A stretch of 64,000 nucleotides of DNA from Octopus vulgaris (taxonomy: Eukaryota). The stretch covers positions 124,434,001-124,498,000 of the forward strand of contig OX597820.1 in NCBI GenBank assembly GCA_951406725.2, given 5' to 3'. A model generated the notes under the pieces. That model saw only the letters and a list, made by a program, of their open reading frames with translations. It searched no databases and had not been told where the DNA came from. Below, piece by piece: positions 2,861 to 54,570 of this stretch. A program made the position numbers and the translations under genes. Position 1 is the stretch's first letter. Every line of letters begins with the position of its first letter.

Positions 2861-3200
2861 TTATTGTGAAGATATCGATGTATTTCCATTTCAACGACGC
2901 TTCAATCATATTAGTGAACTCTATCATTATATATCATTTAAACATTAATTTTCTTTCTATATTTCACATTCACTAAAAATATGCATTTTCCTAGTATATA
3001 ATGTTCTATTTAATATACATATAGTCATATACTTCTCATTTATTTAGCTTTTATTTAATTTACCCCTCCTTCTCCTATAGGTTTAATCTCACGTTATATC
3101 ATATAACGTTTTTTCAAATAATATTAATAGCGTTCAGTTAATCTCTATATATATCCATCATTTTCTGTTAAAATGCCTTATTGACGAGTTTCATTTCTTC

Positions 3201-3289
3201 ACTTCCCTGAAGAGAAGATTTCATTGTTTTACACCATTTTATTCCTTTGGAATAATATCAGTGATATCTTCGAAACATATATCGGAAGT
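3201..3289 (+). ncRNA. Type I hammerhead motif, one stem III mismatch
   Basis: acttcc-CTGAAGA-gaagat...atcttc-GAAAC-ATAT-ATC-ggaagt. Stems I and II are 6 bp each. ATC replaces the GTC seen in the paralogs at 7751 and 50645. Confidence 0.75.
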
Positions 3290-3378
3290 AAAAGAATTTG
3301 AATTACACTTGCGTTAAACTCCATTTATTTATTTGTATATAAATATACATGTATTTGTATATATGTATATATTTATAC

Positions 3379-19755: not shown

Positions 19756-19821
19756 ATCACAATTAGGAAGATGATAAAATTGTAAATGGTAATAATAATG
19801 ATAATAATAATAATAATGACA

Positions 19822-21765
19822 ATGAATCCCTAAATGCTGGTGATGTAAAAATTTCGTGTGGCATTTTCCAGGGTGACTCACTGTCACCACTCCTCTTTTG
19901 TTTATCCTTAATACCTCTCTCAAAGCTGCTCAATGACGCGCAGTACGGGTATAAAATGTTTGATAAAAATATAAATCATCTCATTTACATGGATGATTTA
20001 AAGCTTTTTGCAAAAAATGACCAACAACTCAAGGGCTTACTAGCGATAGTCAAACAATTCAGTGACGACATCAGAATGCAATTCGGCCTCGATAAATGTG
20101 CAAAAGCTACCTTTATCAAAGGAAAAATGACAGAAACATCTAACGTTAACCTTGACCAGCAGAATGTCATAAAAGAACTAGACCCAGCGGAGAGCTACAA
20201 GTACCTAGGGGTAATTGAAGGGAACGGAATAAGGCATTCAGAGATGAAGGAAAGGATCAGGAGAGAATGCTATCGAAGAGTGAGAGCAATACTCAAAACA
20301 GAGCTGAATGCAAGAAACAGGATCGAAGCGATCAATGCATTAGCCATACCAGTCGTGACCTACAGTTTCAATATTGTTAACCGGTCAATTACTGAAATAT
20401 GTCAGCTCGACAGAAAAATAAGGAAACCGTTGACAATGCATAGAATGCACCACCCTAAGGCAGATACAGAACGACTCTATCTGCCAAGAAAAGAGGGAGG
20501 CCGTGGTCTTTTGCAACTGGCAATAACAATAAAGATTGCTACAATTGGCCTAGACACCTACCTGAAAAACTCTGAGGACTGGATGTTAAACTTGTCTCAA
20601 AACATGAAAACAAGAAAGCATCATACTCAGTAAGAAAACAGGCAAAGGAATATCTAAGTGAATTCCGAATACAACCAATTTCGGAATTAGAGATAGACAT
20701 ACAAGAAACAAGCACACAAAAAGCTAGGCGCGTGAAAACCCGTGCCAAAACTGCGGCTTTAGATATTCTGAATAATAAATGGCAAGAAAAAACTCTCTAT
20801 GGCAAATACCCAAAGCGAGCGAATAATGCAGATATCGACAAAGCCCTGACCCATCAATGGCTAATGGCCTCTAGCTTAAACTCTGAAACAGAGGGGTTTA
20901 TCATAGCAGCTCAAGATCAATGCCTACCAACAAGAAACTACCAGGCCAACATATTAAAGAACGGCAGTAGCCCAACATGTCGTGTATGCCGACAACAAAA
21001 TGAAACCATTGATAATGTTGTCTCCAAATGCAGTCTTCTAGCGCCTACAGAGTACCTCAACAGGCATGATAGAGCTGCACAATATATTCACTGGGTAATT
21101 TGCTAAAACCTGGATTTGCCCCATGAAAAAAACTGGTGGGAACACAATCCACCTCCAGTGCTTGAAAATGACCACATCTCACTCCTCTGGAACTTCACCA
21201 TTCAAACTGACAGGAAGATAGATGCAAATAGGCCAGACATCATATTGAAAGACTTCAGACAAAGAACATGCCTCCTCATTGATATGACTGTCCCAATCGA
21301 TATAAACGTATCTATCAAGACCTACCAAAAACTGAGCAAATATAAAGATCTTGAAATAGAAATCAGCAAGATGTGGAAGCTGAAGACTAAAACAATACCT
21401 GTTATCATAGGTGCCCTGGGAATGATAGCGAAGGGGACTGATTGCTACCTAACTCAGATACCAGGAAACCCCAAGATGGCAGAGATTCAAAAGATAGTGC
21501 TCATTGGAACTGCTCATATCCTACGCAAAATACTCTCTATGTAATCCCAAGGTTTAAAACAAACTTTTATTTATTTATTTTTTATTTATTTATTTATCTA
21601 TTTATTTTTTTTTAAATGTTATTCTTATGTATTATACATTCACTAGCACAAGACCAAAAAAAAACCCAAATATATGGCACAGAACTTCCAACCTGTTGTC
21701 TCTTGAGGTCTCTGGGTGAGACTTGGAGCCAACTTGTACAGACATAAAGCAAAAGTCAAACATAG
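19822..21765 (+). mobile_element. 5'-truncated R4/Dong-clade non-LTR retrotransposon (RT + CCHC-like + restriction-like endonuclease) in (TAA)n
   Basis: Motifs are GIFQGDSLSPLLF, HLIYMDDLKL, YKYLG, RLYLPRKEGGRGL, CRVC..ETIDNVVSKC, RHD and NRPDIIL..CLLIDMTVP..KLSKYKDL. There is one frameshift (~20588) and one stop (21104-21106). The 3' UTR runs into (TAA)n, and TAA repeats also lie 5'. Confidence 0.92.
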
Positions 21766-27529: not shown

Positions 27530-30394
27530 GTTAATTCAAAGAACATTTATCTTCATTTGTGATTATATAATTCGAGGTATTCAATTTGTTTGTCCCTGTC
27601 ATATAATTCCAATGTTATTGGTATATATTAGGAATTGTTAAAAATTTATAATAGCAATTTTGGGGGAAGAAAATAAATGAAGAAATAATGGATGCATACA
27701 TTTCTTTTTAAAACACGACAGTACAAATAAATTGATTATAATTTGTATAGCAGCTCAAACATTTTAAATAAAGGAACCCACATATATGTTTCAATCTTAT
27801 CAGCTAGTTGGCTAGACTTTCCAAGTGTCTGGATAAATGTTAAGGAAGGTATCATCTTCTAATTAAGTTCGATAACAAACTATGGGCAGGTAATAATATA
27901 CCTAAATGCTTTGATGTGGTAATGGCCTCTTCCGATTCAGCTGAGGCCACTGATTTAGTCCATTCGTATATTTCTACACAAATTTAGTAGGGAATTTCCT
28001 GAAATAGGTGGTGGTTTATATAGGGACGACGCACTGGTCATCATTAAAAACCCTTCAAATATAAGCTATAATTAGACAAGAAAAAACTCCAGGAATTCAT
28101 AAAACGTTTTGGATATAAAATTTCTCTTGATGCAGAGCCCAACTCAGTAAGTTTTTTAGGCGTGAATTTTAATCTTATCTCAGGCAAATATGCATCTTCC
28201 CATAAACCCAACTCTAAAATCACCTATATTAACAAAAAAAAGTATTTATATTCAGCTTAATACAAATTGTTTAGGTAATATCATTGAAAGAAGAATACAT
28301 TTTCTCTCATGCAATGAAGATATCATTAATGATAGCAAGGAAATATATAATATTGCACTGGAAAAGGCTAGATTTACACAAAAAATTAGATATATTGTGC
28401 AGGATTTAAATACAGTTAATAATAAACACAAACATGTCTATATATCAAAGCTACAACTTAAGTACTAATAACCTAACGACCGAATCGTTGAATAACGCTA
28501 TAAATATCAATAACACAGTTAATAGATCACGCAATAAATATATATCGAACAGAGGCAAAAGACATAAATATACCGTAACAGAATCCAAAAAGAAATACAC
28601 CTGCAGATCAAAGCCAATTCTTATACTGACAATAATGAAAGAAGCATACACATCATACACCCTAATAATGCTAAACACAAAGTTATGGCAATAATCACAT
28701 GGATATAAATGATATATCAACCTCTGCTGAGGCAGCAAGAGCATATGTCCGCCCATAAATTATTGCAGCTTATTCAACAATACACACAATGTAAAAAAGA
28801 AATAAAAATTGCATACCTTATATTAAATCTAAAATGGAAAACTATCATAATCCAACTTCTAGTAATAATAGAATAAAGAAAAATATATCCTGGTTAATTT
28901 AACCCTTCGCCACACAAGTAAAATCTAATTTGATTACTATAATACACAGGTTGATAAATAAACAGTTTTATATTGATAACAAATATAGGGAATTATTCCA
29001 CAGCAGTTATTTTTCGGTATGCCTTTTCAGTTACTCGTAAATTATTTAGATACATATCATCTCTAAATTCTCCTAAACTACATAAATGTTACGCCAAGCG
29101 TATACCCAATCTACACCCAAAATAAAGAACATTCAAATGCTCCATTCTCACATGACAATCAATGGGAGATTACTCGCCCCAAACAATCTGTCATTTCCAA
29201 AGGCTATATGAGTGATTGTAGAGTTAAAGATCAATGTAAATTTAAGAATTACTGCAAAAGAAAGAATTTAGTATACCAAGCTATAGTTGAAACTGGCGGT
29301 TAACACTTCTTCTATATAGGTTCCTCGAAAAGTTTTATGAAAGCCAGAATCACGAACCATGTATATTCTTTCTGAAATACTAATAAACGTACTTCGACTA
29401 ATGTTAGTAAATCCATCTAGTGAAAAATATAAGGATATATGTTTTAGAATTAGATAGACAATTTTATCTCATGCCAAAACATTTCATCCCCCAGATAAAT
29501 AATGTCAACTCTGTACATCCGAACGTTTTAACATTACTTTTCTTCTTAAAGTTATTAAACGACAGGGTCGAAAATTTCTTCCCATGCTTATACAATTATA
29601 AATATCTATTCTATAAATACAATTAATCATTCTAAAATTACTAATATCACTTAGAGTGTTTGATCTGACATGCACTATTAATAATATACTTAATATGCAA
29701 CCCAATTAATTAGACATCTATTAGGTTCAGAGTTTAAATCTATAAATTTTGTATTTACATATCAAATACGGTATGCATATTAAATAGTTCCATTGTATTT
29801 TAGTATATTCATAAATAACTATTCCATAAATACCATTAACTCTTCTATAATCAGTTATATCACTTATATATTTTTTGATCTAATATTTGCCATTAATAAT
29901 TTACTTAAAATGAGGCCCAATTAGTTAGATACCTGTTAGATCCAGAGTTTATACCAATAAGTTTTATATTTCTTTATCAAACCCGGTGCATATGTCAAAT
30001 AGTTCCATTGTATTTTAGGATCCTATCGACAATAGTTCATAAATATATATATATAGAAAGCAAACTATTGTATATATCATTTTCATTTTTTCTTTCTCAC
30101 TTCCGTTATTTTCGAATTTAACACCCGGTGCACATATCAAATTATTAAATATTCTTATAGTAAATAATCTTTAAATGAGAACGTTGATATATTGCCTCAT
30201 TACATACAAACTCCTTAGAATTATTAATATCAGGCGTAGGAGTGGCTGTGTGGTAAATAGCTTGCTTACGAACGACATGGTTCGGGGTTCAGTCCCACTG
30301 CGTGGCACCTTGAGTAAGTGTCTTCTGCTATAGTCTCGGGCCGACCAAAGCCTTGTGAGTGGATTTGGTAGACGGAAACTGAAAGAAGCCCGTC

Positions 30395-34610: not shown

Positions 34611-34721
34611 TAGAGTAGTGTAGTTATCTGGAAGCAGTGTGTATTGTTTGTAAAATATAATGTATATTGATTGGCACAACAACGCACTATTATAACAACA
34701 ATGGACTTGAGTAACTGATAT

Positions 34722-35946
34722 AATTTAATCATCCATAGTCGTATATAATATTTCGGAAAACAAAAATTCCTTCTTCAGATATCCTAAGGAATTGATTGAG
34801 TCACTGCTATAATAGGTTTTCCAACGGTTGTTTCTGGAAGTTTCTCTGCAGTGGTCTGACGAAGCTACTTCCGGAATTCCTCATTAGGAGTGCGTAAGGG
34901 CGGCTATGCCTCAAGCTCGTGTGTGCTGGGACATCAGTAGCGCTGCTTTTAAGTTATGTATTATACGTGCTGTCTCCTCTTTTGTTACTTTTTTTATAAA
35001 TAATACTTGATCATATTATCAAAAAATGAACTTACACGCATCCAGATGTAGCTAAATAATATATTGACTGACAACCCCCAGCCTGTTGTTAATTTCGGGC
35101 CCTATTCTGTTTATGATGTTAGCTTCCTTACTACCTGGATTACCTAAATTTCTTTCATTGGCTTCAGTTTTGACTGTTACTCTTTTGTCAGTGTTCCGGC
35201 ATCTGTCTAGATGCTTTCTGAAGGAGTAACCACATAGAACTTGCTGTATTTGTTACATTGCATTCTATACACAACAGTTACCCGTTGGTATAAATCTGTG
35301 TCACGGATGGGGCAGCTTGCTAGTGTGCATCGATTGCTGTCCCTTACTCGTTTCTTCTCGAGGTGTTTTCTCAGAGAGGGGCCAGAGTAGGCTAGTTGTA
35401 TGTCTAGTCCTTCTCTTTTTATAGTTCTTCGGATGGCTGTTGTTCTCCTCCCGTTAAAATGGAGGTATTTCAAGGAAGCATGTGTTGCTGTTTTCTGTGT
35501 GTTCGGCGTGTTTGTATTTCCACCGAGTGGAAGTGATGAACTGTACTTAACAGAACAAGACAGAGTAGGGCCAGAAATTAACAACAAGCTCCAGGTTGTC
35601 AGTCAATATGTTATTTCGTTACATCTGGATGCGTGTAAGTTCATTTTTGATAACATGTTCATGTATTAACTATAAAAAAGTAACAAATATGGAAACTGCA
35701 CCTATAATACACAACTTAGAAGCAGCGCTACGGATGTTCCAGCACACAAAAGCTTGAGGCATAGCCACCCTCGCGCAATTCTCATAAGAAATTCGGGAAG
35801 GCACTTCGTGAAAGTACTGCAGGGGCGCTCCTAGCAAACAAACTTTGTAAAACCGATTATAGTAGTGACTCAATCAATTTCTACGAATATATGGAGAAGT
35901 AATTTTTGTTTTCCGAAATATTATATCAGATAATGGATGATTAAAT
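34722..35946 (-). mobile_element. Penelope-like element 3' fragment (GIY-YIG) with inverted terminal duplication
   Basis: Minus-strand CTLASCPI...VVYRMQCNKYSKFYVV and the terminal EANIINRIGPEINNR. 34722-35110 and 35561-35946 are diverged inverted copies. Confidence 0.8.
34743..34782 (-). ncRNA. Minimal type I hammerhead motif
   Basis: Reverse complement: atat-CTGAAGA-A-ggaa tttttgtt ttcc-GAAAT-ATT-atat. Stem III is the loopless palindrome AATATT. The inverted copy (~35887-35926) has a degenerate core. Confidence 0.6.
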
Positions 35947-41790: not shown

Positions 41791-41824
<34 letters not shown>

Positions 41825-41926
41825 TCGGGGTGAGTACTTGATAATTGTAAGCACCTGTATATACCGTTTGGTGGTGTAGGTGGAGGAGTAAATTGATCAA
41901 AATAAAAGCATGATGCCAAGGATTCA

Positions 41927-42004
41927 GCGGTACATATGTTTCGGGCCTTTATTAGACAGATTTATAACAATGCATAATGTATGTCTGTGGCCTTCTTCAG
42001 CCGC
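41927..42004 (-). ncRNA. Type I hammerhead motif
   Basis: Reverse complement: gcgg-CTGAAGA-a-ggcc acaga...tctgt...ggcc c-GAAAC-ATAT-GTA-ccgc. Stem III is the palindrome ACATATGT, and the triplet is GUA. Confidence 0.75.
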
Positions 42005-42281
42005 GCACAACAACTTCCACAAGGACATGTGTTACATCAAAAATTCTTGGTTGGGGATGCAAATCCTCTCATTCGAGTACGACATAATGCGGCAGTAGCA
42101 TAGAATTGAAGCGTCCATCTCGTTCTTCTCTCAATGCAGAATGATTTTACATTGAGAGAAGAACGAGATGGACGCTTCAATTCTATGCTGCTGCCGCATT
42201 ATGTCGTACGCGAATGAGAGGATTTGCATCCCCAACCAAGAATTTTTGATGTAACACATGTCCATGTGGAAGTTGTTGTGC

Positions 42282-42359
42282 GCGGCTGAAGTAGGCCACA
42301 GACATACATTATGCATTGTTATAAATCTGTCTAATAAAGGCCCGAAACATATGTACCGC
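42282..42359 (+). ncRNA. Inverted HHR copy with core substitution (CTGAAGT)
   Basis: Mirror of 41927-42004, with A9 changed to T. Confidence 0.6.
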
Positions 42360-42392
42360 TGAATCCTTGGCATCATGTTTTTATTTTGATCA

Positions 42393-42433
<41 letters not shown>

Positions 42434-49883: not shown

Positions 49884-49943
<60 letters not shown>

Positions 49944-49946
<3 letters not shown>

Positions 49947-50772
49947 TAAGTAGCTGAATGAATTATCCTAGTATGGATAATTCGGTTAACCGATACCCGG
50001 GTATCGAATTTACATCAGAAAGCACTGCACTGGCAGAAACACACCTTCCACTCATATGAATGATGATTAATATAGATAACCTCCTTGAATTTAATAATTT
50101 GGTTCCACATCTACAACAACACCATAGATAAATTTTTTTATACTCCGTTACTTGAAGGCCTACTACCAAATTCGTTGGGGTATGTTCAACCTTTGTCTCT
50201 CTACCTCTCCCCCCTCTCTCTCTCTCTCTCCCTCTCTCTATCATGAGCACAATCGAACACACAGACACAAACCTGTCACTTCACCACTAGATATATTTAG
50301 CATTATCCCCCACACAAACAATCACGCACACATATACACACACATAGACACGAATGCAGTTATATACATATACACACATAGGCACTCAATCTCATTGGCA
50401 AAGCAAACAACAATGCATCACCATACATACGACTTGCACTCTGTCACCCCCCTATTCTTAGAACCTGCCCCTTCCAACCATTTTTGAACTCTTGAACTTT
50501 TTAGAATCTTATCCATCCAACTAATTTTGACGTCACTGCTTATAACGGAATATTTTAAAGAAACACTCATTATCACTATGGACTCCGTGTAGGCAGTCAT
50601 CTAAAAGTTTTTGTTCGTCATGATGCTGACATAAGTTCCTTGTCTTTCCTGATGAGAAGACGGCATAATGCACCCTTTATTCCTTCGGAATTAAGAATAT
50701 GCAGTCTTCGAAACACATGTCGAGAACAAAGGAATTTTGTTAAATCGTCGTTGGACTCCATTCTTTCATTTA

Positions 50773-50807
<35 letters not shown>

Positions 50808-51662
50808 TACATATATATATATATATGTTTAAGTAGCTGAATGAATTATCCTAGTATGGATAATTCGGTTAACCGATACCCGGGTATCAAATTTACATCA
50901 GAAAGCACTGCACTTTCGGCCTCACTTTTCAAAGAATACTGAAGGAGTGGCTCTCTAGACAGGACATTTTCCACTCATATGAATGATGATTAATATAGAT
51001 AACCTCCTTGAATTTAATAATTTGGTTCCACATCTACAACAACACCATAGACACATTTTTTTATACTCCGTTACTTGAAGGCCTACTACCAAATTCGTTG
51101 GGGTATGTTCTACCTTTGTCTCTCTACCTCCGCCCTCTCTCTCTCTCCCTCTCTCTATCATAAGCACAATCGAACACACAGACACAAACCTATCACTTCA
51201 CCACTAGATATATTTAGCATTATCCCCCACAAAAACAATCACGCACACATATACACACACAGTCACGAATGCAGTTATATAGATATACACACATAGGCAC
51301 TCAATCTCATTGGCAAAAGCAAACAACAACGCATCACCATACATACGACTTGCACCCTGTCACCCCACTATTCTCAGAACCTGCCCCTTCCAACCATTTT
51401 TGAACTCTTCAACTTTTTAGAATCTTATCCATCCAACTAATTTTGACGTCACTGCTTATAACGTAATATTTTAAAGAAACACTCATTATCACTATGGACA
51501 CCGTGTAGGCAGTCATCTAAACGTTTTTGTTCGTCATGATGCTGACATGAGTTCCTTGTCCGCTTTATTCCTTCGGAATTAAGAATATGCAGTCTTCGAA
51601 ACATATGTCGAGAACAAAGGAATTTTGTTAAATCGTCGTTAGACTCCATTCTTTCATTTATC
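49944..51662 (+). mobile_element. Two direct copies (~830 bp) of an HHR-bearing element, each bounded by (TA)n
   Basis: 49944-50774 and 50827-51662 align end to end with scattered substitutions and indels. Confidence 0.9.
50645..50725 (+). ncRNA. Type I hammerhead ribozyme motif, intact core
   Basis: tttc-CTGATGA-gaagac g gcata...tatgc a gtcttc-GAAAC-ACAT-GTC-gaga. Predicted cleavage is after C50721. Confidence 0.85.
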
Positions 51663-51680
51663 TATATATATATATATCCC

Positions 51681-51769
<89 letters not shown>

Positions 51770-51770
51770 A

Positions 51771-52178
51771 GGCGCAGGAGTGCCTGTGTGGTAAGTAGCT
51801 TGTTTACCAACCACATGGTGCCGGGTTCAGTCCCACTGCGTGGCACCTTGGGCAAGTGTCTTCTACTATAGCCTCTGGCCGACCAAAGCCTTGTGAGTGG
51901 ATTTGGTAGACAGAAACTGAAAGAAGCCCGTCGTATATATGTATATATGTATATGTATATGCGTGTGTGTGTTTGTGTGTCTATGTTTGTCCTCCTAGCA
52001 TTGCTAGACAACCGATGCTGGTGTGTTTATGTCCCCGTCACCTAGCGGTTCAGCAAAAAATACTGATAAAATAAGTACTGGGCTTACAAAAGAATAAGTC
52101 CCGGGGTCGAGTTGCTCGATTAAAGGCGGTGCTCCAGCATGGCCGCAGTCAAATGACTGAATCAAGTAAAAGAATAAA

Positions 52179-52571: not shown

Positions 52572-52616
<45 letters not shown>

Positions 52617-52898
52617 CAACAATTGAGGGTAAAATTAATTAATTATTAATCAATTTCACCAAGTGTTCAGTATGCAAAGGGACCATTTAAGGCGAATTAA
52701 AATTATTACATTATATAAAAGGGCTTAGTAAAATAAATTACTTTGCCGCATACTGAACTCATTAGAAATAGCAGCTAAAAAACTTTTTTAAAACTATTTC
52801 TAATACTTAAAGAAAACCTCTCTCATATAGTGTTTGCTCAACTCAACTCACGAAAGTTTGGGGGTAAAGACATCAAAAAATCAAATGCAAAGGTTATT

Positions 52899-52950
52899 TG
52901 AGAACGTACGTTTCAAGATTAGTCAACACGACACTTCTATCATCAGCTCA
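52899..52950 (-). ncRNA. Hammerhead-like motif, unit 1
   Basis: Reverse complement: tgag-CTGATGA-taga agt gtc gtgtt gac taa tctt-GAAAC-GTAC-GTT-ctca. Stem III is the palindrome AACGTACGTT. The U10.1/U11.1 pair and GUU triplet are non-canonical. Confidence 0.65.
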
Positions 52951-53458
52951 GAAACTCCTTGGTTTGGATTTGAAAACACTGAAAGTGAGAGCATACCCTT
53001 TCGGCTTCTCATCGCTTTCGAAGATCTGCTCGTAACTAACAGTGCCAACAAACTCAAATATGCAAGCGAAGAATTTCTGTTCTCCCCTTTCCACCAGCGT
53101 GGGTTAAAATCAGCAAACACTATGCTTATTTCGGTAAAATCCGAAGCATTAATTAGAGGGAGATTAATTATAATTTCAACAATTGAGGGTAAAATTAATT
53201 AATTATTAATCAATTTCACCAAGTGTTCAGTATGCAAAGGGACCATTTAAGGCGAATTCAAATTATTACATTATATAAAAGGGCTTAGTAAAATAAATTA
53301 CTTTGCCGCATACTGAACTCATTAGAAATAGCAGCTAAAAAACTTTTTTAAAACTATTTCTAATACTTAAAGAAAACCTCTCTCATATAGTGTTTGCTCA
53401 ACTCAACTCACGAAAGTTTGGGGGTAAAGACATCAAAAAATCAAATGCAAAGGTTATT

Positions 53459-53510
53459 TGAGAACGTACGTTTCAAGATTAGTCAACACGACACTTCTAT
53501 CATCAGCTCA
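53459..53510 (-). ncRNA. Hammerhead-like motif, unit 2
   Basis: Identical to 52899-52950. Confidence 0.65.
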
Positions 53511-54016
53511 GAAACTCCTTGGTTTGGATTTGAAAACACTGAAAGTGAGAGCATACCCTTTCGGCTTCTCATCGCTTTCGAAGATCTGCTCGTAACTAAC
53601 AGTGCCAACGAACTCAAATATGCAAGCGAAGAATCTCTGTTCTCCCCTTTCCACCAGCGTGGGTTAAAATCAGCAAACACTATGCTTATTTCGGTAAAAT
53701 CCGAAGCATTAATTAGAGGGAGATTAATTATAATTTCAACAATTGAGGGTAAAATTAATTAATTATTAATCAATTTCACCAAGTGTTCAGTATGCAAAGG
53801 GACCATTTAAGGCGAATTCAAATTATTACATTATATAAAAGGGCTTAGTAAAATAAATTACTTTGCCGCATACTGAACTCATTAGAAATAGCAGCTAAAA
53901 AACTTTTTTAAAACTATTTCTAATACTTAAAAAAACCTCTCTCATATAGTGTTTGCTCAACTCAACTCACGAAAGTTTGGGGTAAAGACATCAAAAACTC
54001 AAATGCAAAGGTTATT

Positions 54017-54068
54017 TGAGAACGTACGTTTCAAGATTAGTCAACACGACACTTCTATCATCAGCTCA
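54017..54068 (-). ncRNA. Hammerhead-like motif, unit 3
   Basis: Identical to 52899-52950. Confidence 0.65.
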
Positions 54069-54330
54069 GAAACTCCTTGGTTTGGATTTGAAAACACTGA
54101 AAGTGAGAGCATACCCTTTCGGCTTCTCATCGCTTTCGAAGATCTGCTCGTAACTAACAGTGCCAACAAACTCAAATATGCAAGCGAAGAATTTCTGTTC
54201 TCCCTTTCCACCAGCGTGCATATTTGAGTTTGTTGGCACTGTTAGTTACGAGCAGATCTTCGAAAGCGATGAGAAGCCGAAAGGGTATGCTCTCACTTTC
54301 AGTGTTTTCAAATCCAAACCAAGGAGTTTC

Positions 54331-54382
54331 TGAGCTGATGATAGAAGTGTCGTGTTGACTAATCTTGAAACGTACGTTCTCA
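54331..54382 (+). ncRNA. Hammerhead-like motif, inverted copy
   Basis: tgagCTGATGAtagaagtgtcgtgttgactaatcttGAAACgtacGTTctca, read directly on the plus strand. Confidence 0.65.
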
Positions 54383-54459
54383 AATAACCTTTGCATTTGA
54401 TTTTTTGATGTCTTTACCCCCAAACTTTCCTTCTTCAAATCCAACACATATATATATAT

Positions 54460-54570
<111 letters not shown>

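Follow-up and report, generated by a model that had tools for sequence, protein, structure and literature searches.

Dimer-dependent hammerhead ribozymes (HHRs), RNA circles in mussel, coral and axolotl, and an ancestry in Penelope-like elements (PLEs) have been described for animal retrozymes (PMC7229834, PMC4209133, bioRxiv 10.64898/2026.07.22.740005). Animal HHRs in general have a palindromic helix III and fold as dimers (PMC4209133). In the axolotl HHR_Amex2, helix II has a U.U at its base and helix III comprises 2 bp capped by a tetraloop; alone, 22% of it was cleaved in an hour, whereas the dimer performed much better (PMC7229834). Li, Clavereau and Pollet, who sampled vertebrates, three insects and a coral, defined PLE-derived retrozymes as arrays of at least two successive units that contain a complete type I HHR, and linked them to the pseudo-LTRs of PLEs (bioRxiv 10.64898/2026.07.22.740005). 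Insertions of PLEs themselves are recognized by a partial tandem, an adjacent inverted 5′-truncated copy and (TA)n targets (PMC8557442), and their reverse transcription begins on AT-rich DNA, at an internal site of the RNA that lies downstream of the HHR (PMC11167929). A model in which a circle gives rise to cDNA of more than unit length has been in print since 2014 (PMC4209133), and whether the tandems of PLEs and retrozymes derive from circular RNA or from uncut multimers is a question for the field.

The 2026 repeat annotation of Octopus vulgaris lists 31 recently active Penelope-like families, and ribozymes are unmentioned in the accessible part of that paper (PMC13282606) and likewise in that of PMC8967140. 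Literature searches, which covered papers available outside subscription, returned no report of the 560-bp family described below or of cephalopod hammerhead retrozymes; Repbase or Dfam may list the repeat. Publications thus already exist on the class of this element, on its link to PLEs, on its variant of the HHR and on the circle model.

Architecture of the array and its flanks

The window, that is, the whole 64,000-nucleotide stretch of O. vulgaris DNA analysed, contains 560-bp units arranged head-to-tail, with starts at 52611, 53171 and 53731, a spacing of exactly 560 bp and a total of 2.88 units. The array and its flanks comprise the following features.

52573 to 52612, no strand: left (TA)n tract, (TA)20; adjoins the element; likely target and primer
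52611 to 53170, minus strand: unit 1; 560 bp, 34% GC, non-coding; the minus strand is the predicted RNA sense
52665 to 52758, minus strand: long-range stem, in every unit; arms 52665-52675 and 52748-52758
52761 to 52804, minus strand: hairpin with 11-bp outer arms, in every unit; predicted fold
53171 to 53730, minus strand: unit 2; 3 differences in 560 compared with unit 1
53731 to 54218, minus strand: unit 3, partial; 488 bp, unit positions 1-491
54217 to 54429, plus strand: inverted copy of 213 bp, running from unit position 454 to 242; identical to unit 1
54430 to 54447, no strand: spacer of 18 nt; 11 nt of it match the element exactly
54448 to 54567, no strand: right (AT)n tract, 18 nt beyond the inverted copy

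An earlier note on this DNA had described a 560-bp head-to-tail spacing with about three differences between units 1 and 2, two extra hairpins per unit and a 213-bp inverted copy behind the array. Sequence comparison found the spacing and the number of differences (at unit positions 89, 440 and 465) to be exact, the inverted copy was a perfect reverse complement of unit 1 positions 242-454, and both hairpins were present in the predicted fold. When extended, the inverted copy reached 216 bp with one mismatch to unit 1. Its inner junction showed a 2-nt microhomology (four of five nucleotides when extended), and 28 nt separated the two arms. The partial third unit carried three 1-nt deletions and one private substitution. 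Across the ∼1830 bp of the array, seven differences (0.4%) were identified, all of them singletons, and no derived change was common to any two units. Given that the differences are few and all singletons, the insert is young, and some of the differences may represent sequence errors.

The element had also been placed between TA tracts. This holds for the left tract, which abuts the element and whose last TATA matches the element end (unit positions 560 and 1-3), but not for the right tract, which lies 18 nt away. The 11-nt element match within this spacer was equalled by 90 of 19388 random 18-mers from the window, and the spacer may be templated junction filler. Target-site duplications of non-LTR retrozymes, where they occur, exceed 4 bp; any such duplication here would be masked by the flanking TA tracts.

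The hammerhead motif and its predicted folding

Using our own relaxed type I descriptor, an identical 52-nt HHR motif was identified in the three units and in the inverted copy, four altogether; in the control, the descriptor matched 3 of 5000 dinucleotide-shuffled units. The single minus-strand HHR-like motif per unit that had been proposed previously was recovered in all three units; the motif of the inverted copy is an addition to that earlier account.

52899 to 52950, minus strand: HHR motif 1; CUGAUGA and GAAA cores, U10.1.U11.1, palindromic helix III, GUU; predicted cut after 52903
53459 to 53510, minus strand: HHR motif 2; identical; predicted cut after 53463
54017 to 54068, minus strand: HHR motif 3; identical; predicted cut after 54021
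54331 to 54382, plus strand: HHR motif 4, in the inverted copy; identical; predicted cut after 54378

Judged against the consensus stated in PMC3088659, the type I core of the motif was complete (C3 U4 G5 A6 N7 G8 A9, G12 A13 A14, A15.1-U16.1, H17). Positions 10.1 and 11.1 at the base of helix II were unpaired (U.U), which is the majority form of the family, and helix III consisted of 2 bp and a tetraloop inside a perfect 10-nt palindrome. The U.U and the GUU triplet had been thought to make this an unusual HHR variant. That view could not be upheld, as a natural U10.1-U11.1 has been reported and U at position 17 lies within the consensus (Perreault 2011, PMC3088659), and the HHR of the 560-bp unit is thus no new variant. 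Rfam gave no HHR match in the element, either at the gathering score or at E values up to 10, and the Rfam miRNA matches in the element were rejected as products of the fold-back hairpin.

On either strand, the unit folded better than every one of 100 shuffles (z of −5.7 for minus and −5.1 for plus), and folding therefore does not pick a strand. Helix III was predicted at +2.4 kcal/mol as a monomer hairpin and at −9.8 kcal/mol as a dimer duplex, and in a two-unit RNA the predicted probability of the inter-unit helix III was 0.98 to 1.0, with that of the monomeric helix at 0. Constrained predictions for the two-unit RNA placed a double hammerhead 12.5 kcal/mol better than two monomeric ones and 11.8 kcal/mol above the free ensemble, with the inner stem I unpopulated. 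For a circular monomer, a single hammerhead was predicted to cost +8.9 kcal/mol. The isolated motif was predicted to fold at −6.6 kcal/mol, though outside the active fold. In these energies, which leave out tertiary contacts, predicted folding favors the dimer over the monomer and neither over the free ensemble. Due to the 10-nt palindromic helix III, cleavage is predicted in the dimer only, and it is expected from the modelling to be weak as well as dimer-dependent.

Further HHR-bearing repeats were identified in the window. A fold-back insert (41820-42397) lies between two (TA)n tracts and has 509-bp arms that are 97% alike; it carries a type I HHR on the minus strand (41927-42004) with a GUA triplet, a palindromic helix III and a long helix II, while its plus-strand HHR copy is changed at core position 9. 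A direct duplication of ∼0.9 kb (49890-51720, 88.5% overall), each copy of which ends in a TA tract, has a type I HHR on the plus strand (50645-50725) with a GUC triplet; the second copy is without the 5′ core, and related fragments were found at 3194-3377. Both sequences are unrelated to the 560-bp family. With two further HHR-bearing, TA-anchored repeats in one window, the pattern is nothing exceptional for this genome, in which hammerhead inserts of PLE type are common. A seventh descriptor match (34718-34782) looks like chance, and the descriptor found no HHR in a two-copy 215-bp tandem at 29598-30018 (78% alike).

Other repeats in the window include a SINE-like sequence (∼51771-52170) that follows a TA tract and is presumably the abundant octopus tRNA-derived SINE. 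The Pfam scan took 136 of the 141 filtered window frames, the other five being copies of the element's own two frames, which were scanned separately. One of the 136 had a match, a LINE-type reverse transcriptase (RT) at 19767-20630, 32 kb from the element, within a stretch of broken non-LTR RT frames (19767-21106, Pfam RVT_1). A protein search with this RT returned distant relatives only (best, 68% identical). Neither a PLE open reading frame (ORF) nor a host exon was identified in the Pfam scan of the window frames.

The 560-bp family in public sequencing runs

Unit sequence was present in 20 of the 24 listed public runs, which cover four coded organisms and 10 studies; none of the runs containing it is labelled as RNA. 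For a survey of the family, one permuted unit (53050-53609) was compared with the contigs of runs X1, X4, X10 and X14 (organisms A, A, B and D, respectively). Matching contigs numbered 4989 in X1, 108 in X4, 1888 in X10 and 2020 in X14, and the unit was covered in 30 of 30 bins in each of these runs. These three coded organisms all contain the 560-bp unit as a highly repeated family, although summed contig depth cannot be equated with copy number. The run data are contig sets, which carry no information on strand, RNA ends or circles, and X4, classed as RNA by guess, is no evidence of expression.

In all four runs, summed depth stepped up at unit position 1 by a factor of about 2.5 to 8, and one X4 contig had a TA tract at its unit position 1 end. 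The depth step and the TA-joined contig together point to a fixed end common to many copies. Among the 18 of 276 loose ends shown, none clearly entered sequence other than variants or TA-rich flanks. A local depth peak was seen in all four runs at unit positions 459-496 (53069-53106), where unit 3 stops and folds back; it may mark a preferred stop or a stretch common to another repeat.

Contigs in all four runs crossed the junction between unit positions 560 and 1, with short sides of 11 to 25 letters; none of the 32 listed pieces, of 9095, had 31 letters on both sides, the best having 25. These crossings argue against the length of the array or its fold-back being an artefact of assembly or long reads. 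An artefact would account for the three 1-nt deletions in the unit 3 arm, all in or beside homopolymer runs, next to an inverted arm that is perfect with respect to unit 1. However, beyond the inversion the sequence enters a different flank and does not retrace the array, and in the other fold-back insert of the window the arms have diverged to 97%, which indicates that such structures are real here. An artefactual origin is accordingly improbable.

Helitron- and Helentron-type elements form tandem arrays and have terminal hairpins, and the Helitron end motif is TC...CTRR. The strong hairpins near the fixed end of the unit would also suit a non-autonomous repeat of this type, propagated by rolling circle at the DNA level and carrying the HHR-like motif incidentally. 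This is very unlikely, as no TC...CTRR ends were found at the unit junction, the HHR is complete, with a palindromic helix III and a rate of 3/5000 in shuffles, and a truncated copy in inverse orientation and a TA target are as expected of PLEs.

Across the family, 47 variable sites were found, of which 40 were listed. None of the listed sites fell on the 29 core, stem I and stem III positions or on positions 10.1, 11.1 and 17. By our own arithmetic, the chance of no variant in the HHR core is ∼0.12, with about two expected, which is not significant alone. The lack of any listed variant at 10.1, 11.1 and 17 indicates that the U.U and the GUU are family traits. Inspection by eye of the loose ends, of which 18 out of 276 were shown, identified four diverged X14 contigs with a Watson-Crick A10.1-U11.1 pair together with C at the free core position 7, and these A10.1 and C7 changes are those that a real HHR would allow. 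By contrast, four diverged X10 contigs had G at 10.1, but their core C3 was apparently changed (agreement of 0.77, by eye). Diverged copies also contain a plus-strand string that resembles a hammerhead; it has no cleavable triplet and was discarded. Predicted pairs on the minus strand were broken by 7 variants compared with 10.6 expected (P of 0.08), and on the plus strand P was 0.015; this test, which used 33 of the 40 listed variants after 7 rare ones were dropped, is weak and picks no strand. An 89-nt stretch at unit positions 94-182 (53264-53352) had no listed family substitution and high depth, and spans two strong hairpins near the fixed end; it is a candidate binding site for a PLE protein.

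The segments of the array agreed at all 40 listed variable sites that they cover, and at seven of these they carried the X1 minority letter. None of the six checkable within-array differences was a listed family variant. The array segments, being alike at all listed sites, therefore derive from one template haplotype and not from a mix of family transcripts.

The family variants also bear on coding potential. Stop-free frames of 123 codons (plus strand) and 91 codons (minus strand) run across the unit junction, and the previous statement that there is no credible ORF stands in the sense that both frames exist but neither looks coding by Pfam, protein searches or variants. That one of them encodes a small protein might be proposed from the rarity of such a frame (at least 123 codons in 26 of 2000 shuffles) and from the fact that no listed substitution creates a stop in either. 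Against this, Pfam gave nothing above cut-off for the two frames, and the only match to the plus frame among 1.84 billion proteins, a summed score over a PYRIN-repeat protein, was rejected as an artefact. The minus frame had no relatives among longer proteins. Silent and replacing variants stood at 11:24 (plus) and 6:22 (minus) with no third-position excess, and a 1-nt deletion inside both frames made up 4-17% of the depth in the genome-sized runs X1, X10 and X14. The 560-bp unit is non-coding, and a protein product is scarcely credible.

Insertion, template and comparison with known systems

The insert combines a partial tandem and an adjacent inverted 5′-truncated copy with a (TA)n target and a fixed internal cDNA start; unit position 1 adjoins TA sequence in this insert as well as in an X4 contig, and the depth step lies there in 4 of 4 runs. 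The tandem, the inversion and the target match the published PLE signature and fit a non-autonomous non-LTR retrozyme mobilised by a PLE. The features of non-LTR retrozymes were also found, namely a low-GC tandem, a complete HHR in consecutive units, a lack of coding capacity and a multi-copy family. With considerable confidence, the insert can be classed as a PLE-mobilised retrozyme. No ORF with RT and GIY-YIG domains was identified in the element or the window, and exact-pattern scans of two metagenome collections, a viral and a prokaryote collection did not find the unit. An autonomous PLE sharing the 560-bp unit was likewise absent from the window frames and from the metagenome, viral and prokaryote collections. 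It is probable that the 2.88-unit array of a non-LTR retrozyme was inserted in (TA)n by the RT-endonuclease of an autonomous PLE acting in trans.

In the proposed mechanism, a tandem source copy would be transcribed on the minus strand, and two units would pair through the 10-nt palindromic helix III, a lone hammerhead being predicted to fold poorly. Paired in this way, the hammerheads would release a 560-nt monomer for closure into a circle by a host ligase. A PLE enzyme would nick the TA tract and, with priming by a 4-nt TATA match, begin cDNA at a fixed internal site, unit position 1, which lies about 290 nt downstream of the cut. This cDNA would pass the predicted cut site three times, and a fourth time in the inverted copy, all without a scar. 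Synthesis would stop at position 491 of the third unit, where fold-back or a second priming would add the inverted 213 bp, to be followed by repair. The inversion can be accounted for by the cDNA folding back on itself as well as by a second priming event from the right flank. The PLE enzyme, cleavage, ligation and circle are putative components taken from the literature on related systems.

Passage of the cut site without a scar implies that the template was either uncut or religated. An RNA circle is narrowly preferred as the template over an uncut multimer, though we would put it somewhat short of an even chance. Tentatively, the insert could be read as the fresh footprint of rolling reverse transcription around a covalently closed 560-nt RNA, left by a recently active and massively amplified family whose hammerhead cuts multimers only and leaves the circle intact. 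The earlier note had proposed a multimeric cDNA from a 560-nt circle inserted by a PLE enzyme. Of this, the non-coding tandem, the type I HHR and the PLE-type insertion were borne out; the circle is not distinguishable here from an uncut multimeric transcript, as both would give the same product.

The same element and enzyme could have used as template a linear multimer, transcribed at a tandem source locus and left uncut, with a hammerhead that is slow, protein-dependent or idle, and this too is held tentatively. For PAc, the only PLE to have been reconstituted in vitro, unprocessed RNA was the main substrate and HHR mutants were inserted normally, and no RNA-seq ends fell at the cut site (PMC11167929). 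Eight of nine Xenopus retrozyme dimers were uncleaved in vitro (bioRxiv 10.64898/2026.07.22.740005), the HHR here appears weak (U.U, GUU and a double form predicted at +11.8 kcal/mol), and the seven private differences could come from a source array. On the other hand, the units are homogeneous at all listed family-variable sites, and uniform units are what a circle template would yield. In mussel the circular form predominates, and in axolotl it accounts for about half (PMC7229834); the monomer here is strongly self-paired and, as a circle, predicted to keep the HHR unfolded (+8.9 kcal/mol).

The number of units would reveal little about the RNA template if a shorter retro-insertion of about 1.9 units had gained a unit in place by unequal crossing-over or slippage, and such later gain could be combined with either a circle or a multimer template. 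A partial tandem provides 491-bp direct repeats 560 bp apart, which we infer to be a substrate for unequal exchange; local amplification has been proposed for retrozyme arrays (bioRxiv 10.64898/2026.07.22.740005), and the older 0.9-kb HHR-bearing duplication lies 1 kb upstream. However, all seven differences are singletons, with no derived change common to two units, and even 1.9 units need two passes of the cut site. In-place gain is considered unlikely.

If the circle footprint is true, dozens of polymorphic sites and many young insertions would make the 2014 circle-template model testable from genome data alone. Being young, very abundant and polymorphic, and with insertions that retain both a fixed start and an inversion of PLE type, the family is well suited to a test of circles against uncut multimers.

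Compared with known systems, the element is unlike plant LTR retrozymes, which have a type III HHR in LTRs, PBS/PPT and a GC content over 55%, whereas a type I HHR in a tandem of 34% GC was found here. EN+ PLEs, whose hammerheads lie in pseudo-LTRs, likewise combine a partial tandem with a neighboring truncated copy in inverse orientation and a target that is AT-rich or (TA)n, and have the same internal RT start downstream of the HHR and a palindromic helix III suited to dimers (PMC4209133, PMC8557442, PMC11167929). They differ in carrying an RT and GIY-YIG ORF; the 560-bp element has neither. The minimal HHRs of metazoan PLEs usually have an extra base between positions 9 and 10.1 and a G10.1-C11.1 pair, both absent here. 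The core ATG is followed by a stop after six codons in this element, whereas in PAc the ORF starts nearby.

The metazoan non-LTR retrozymes of Cervera and de la Pena 2020 (PMC7229834) are alike in having non-coding head-to-tail units with one type I HHR each, and have a GC content under 45% and, as here, a monomer with strong self-pairing. The U.U and the 2-bp helix III with a tetraloop seen in the 560-bp unit recur in axolotl HHR_Amex2. Units of the retrozymes in that study measure 170-400 nt compared with 560 nt here, and its main text contains no “GUU,” the triplet of this element. The PLE-type inverted 5′ copy and TA target also set the octopus element apart from those retrozymes. For the PLE-derived animal retrozymes of Li, Clavereau and Pollet 2026 (bioRxiv 10.64898/2026.07.22.740005), the working definition applies to this array. 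Their energy cut-off of −5 compares with −6.6 kcal/mol for the isolated motif here, which is predicted outside the active fold. The 560-bp unit lies within their range of 51-972 bp, and most of their families have at most seven units.
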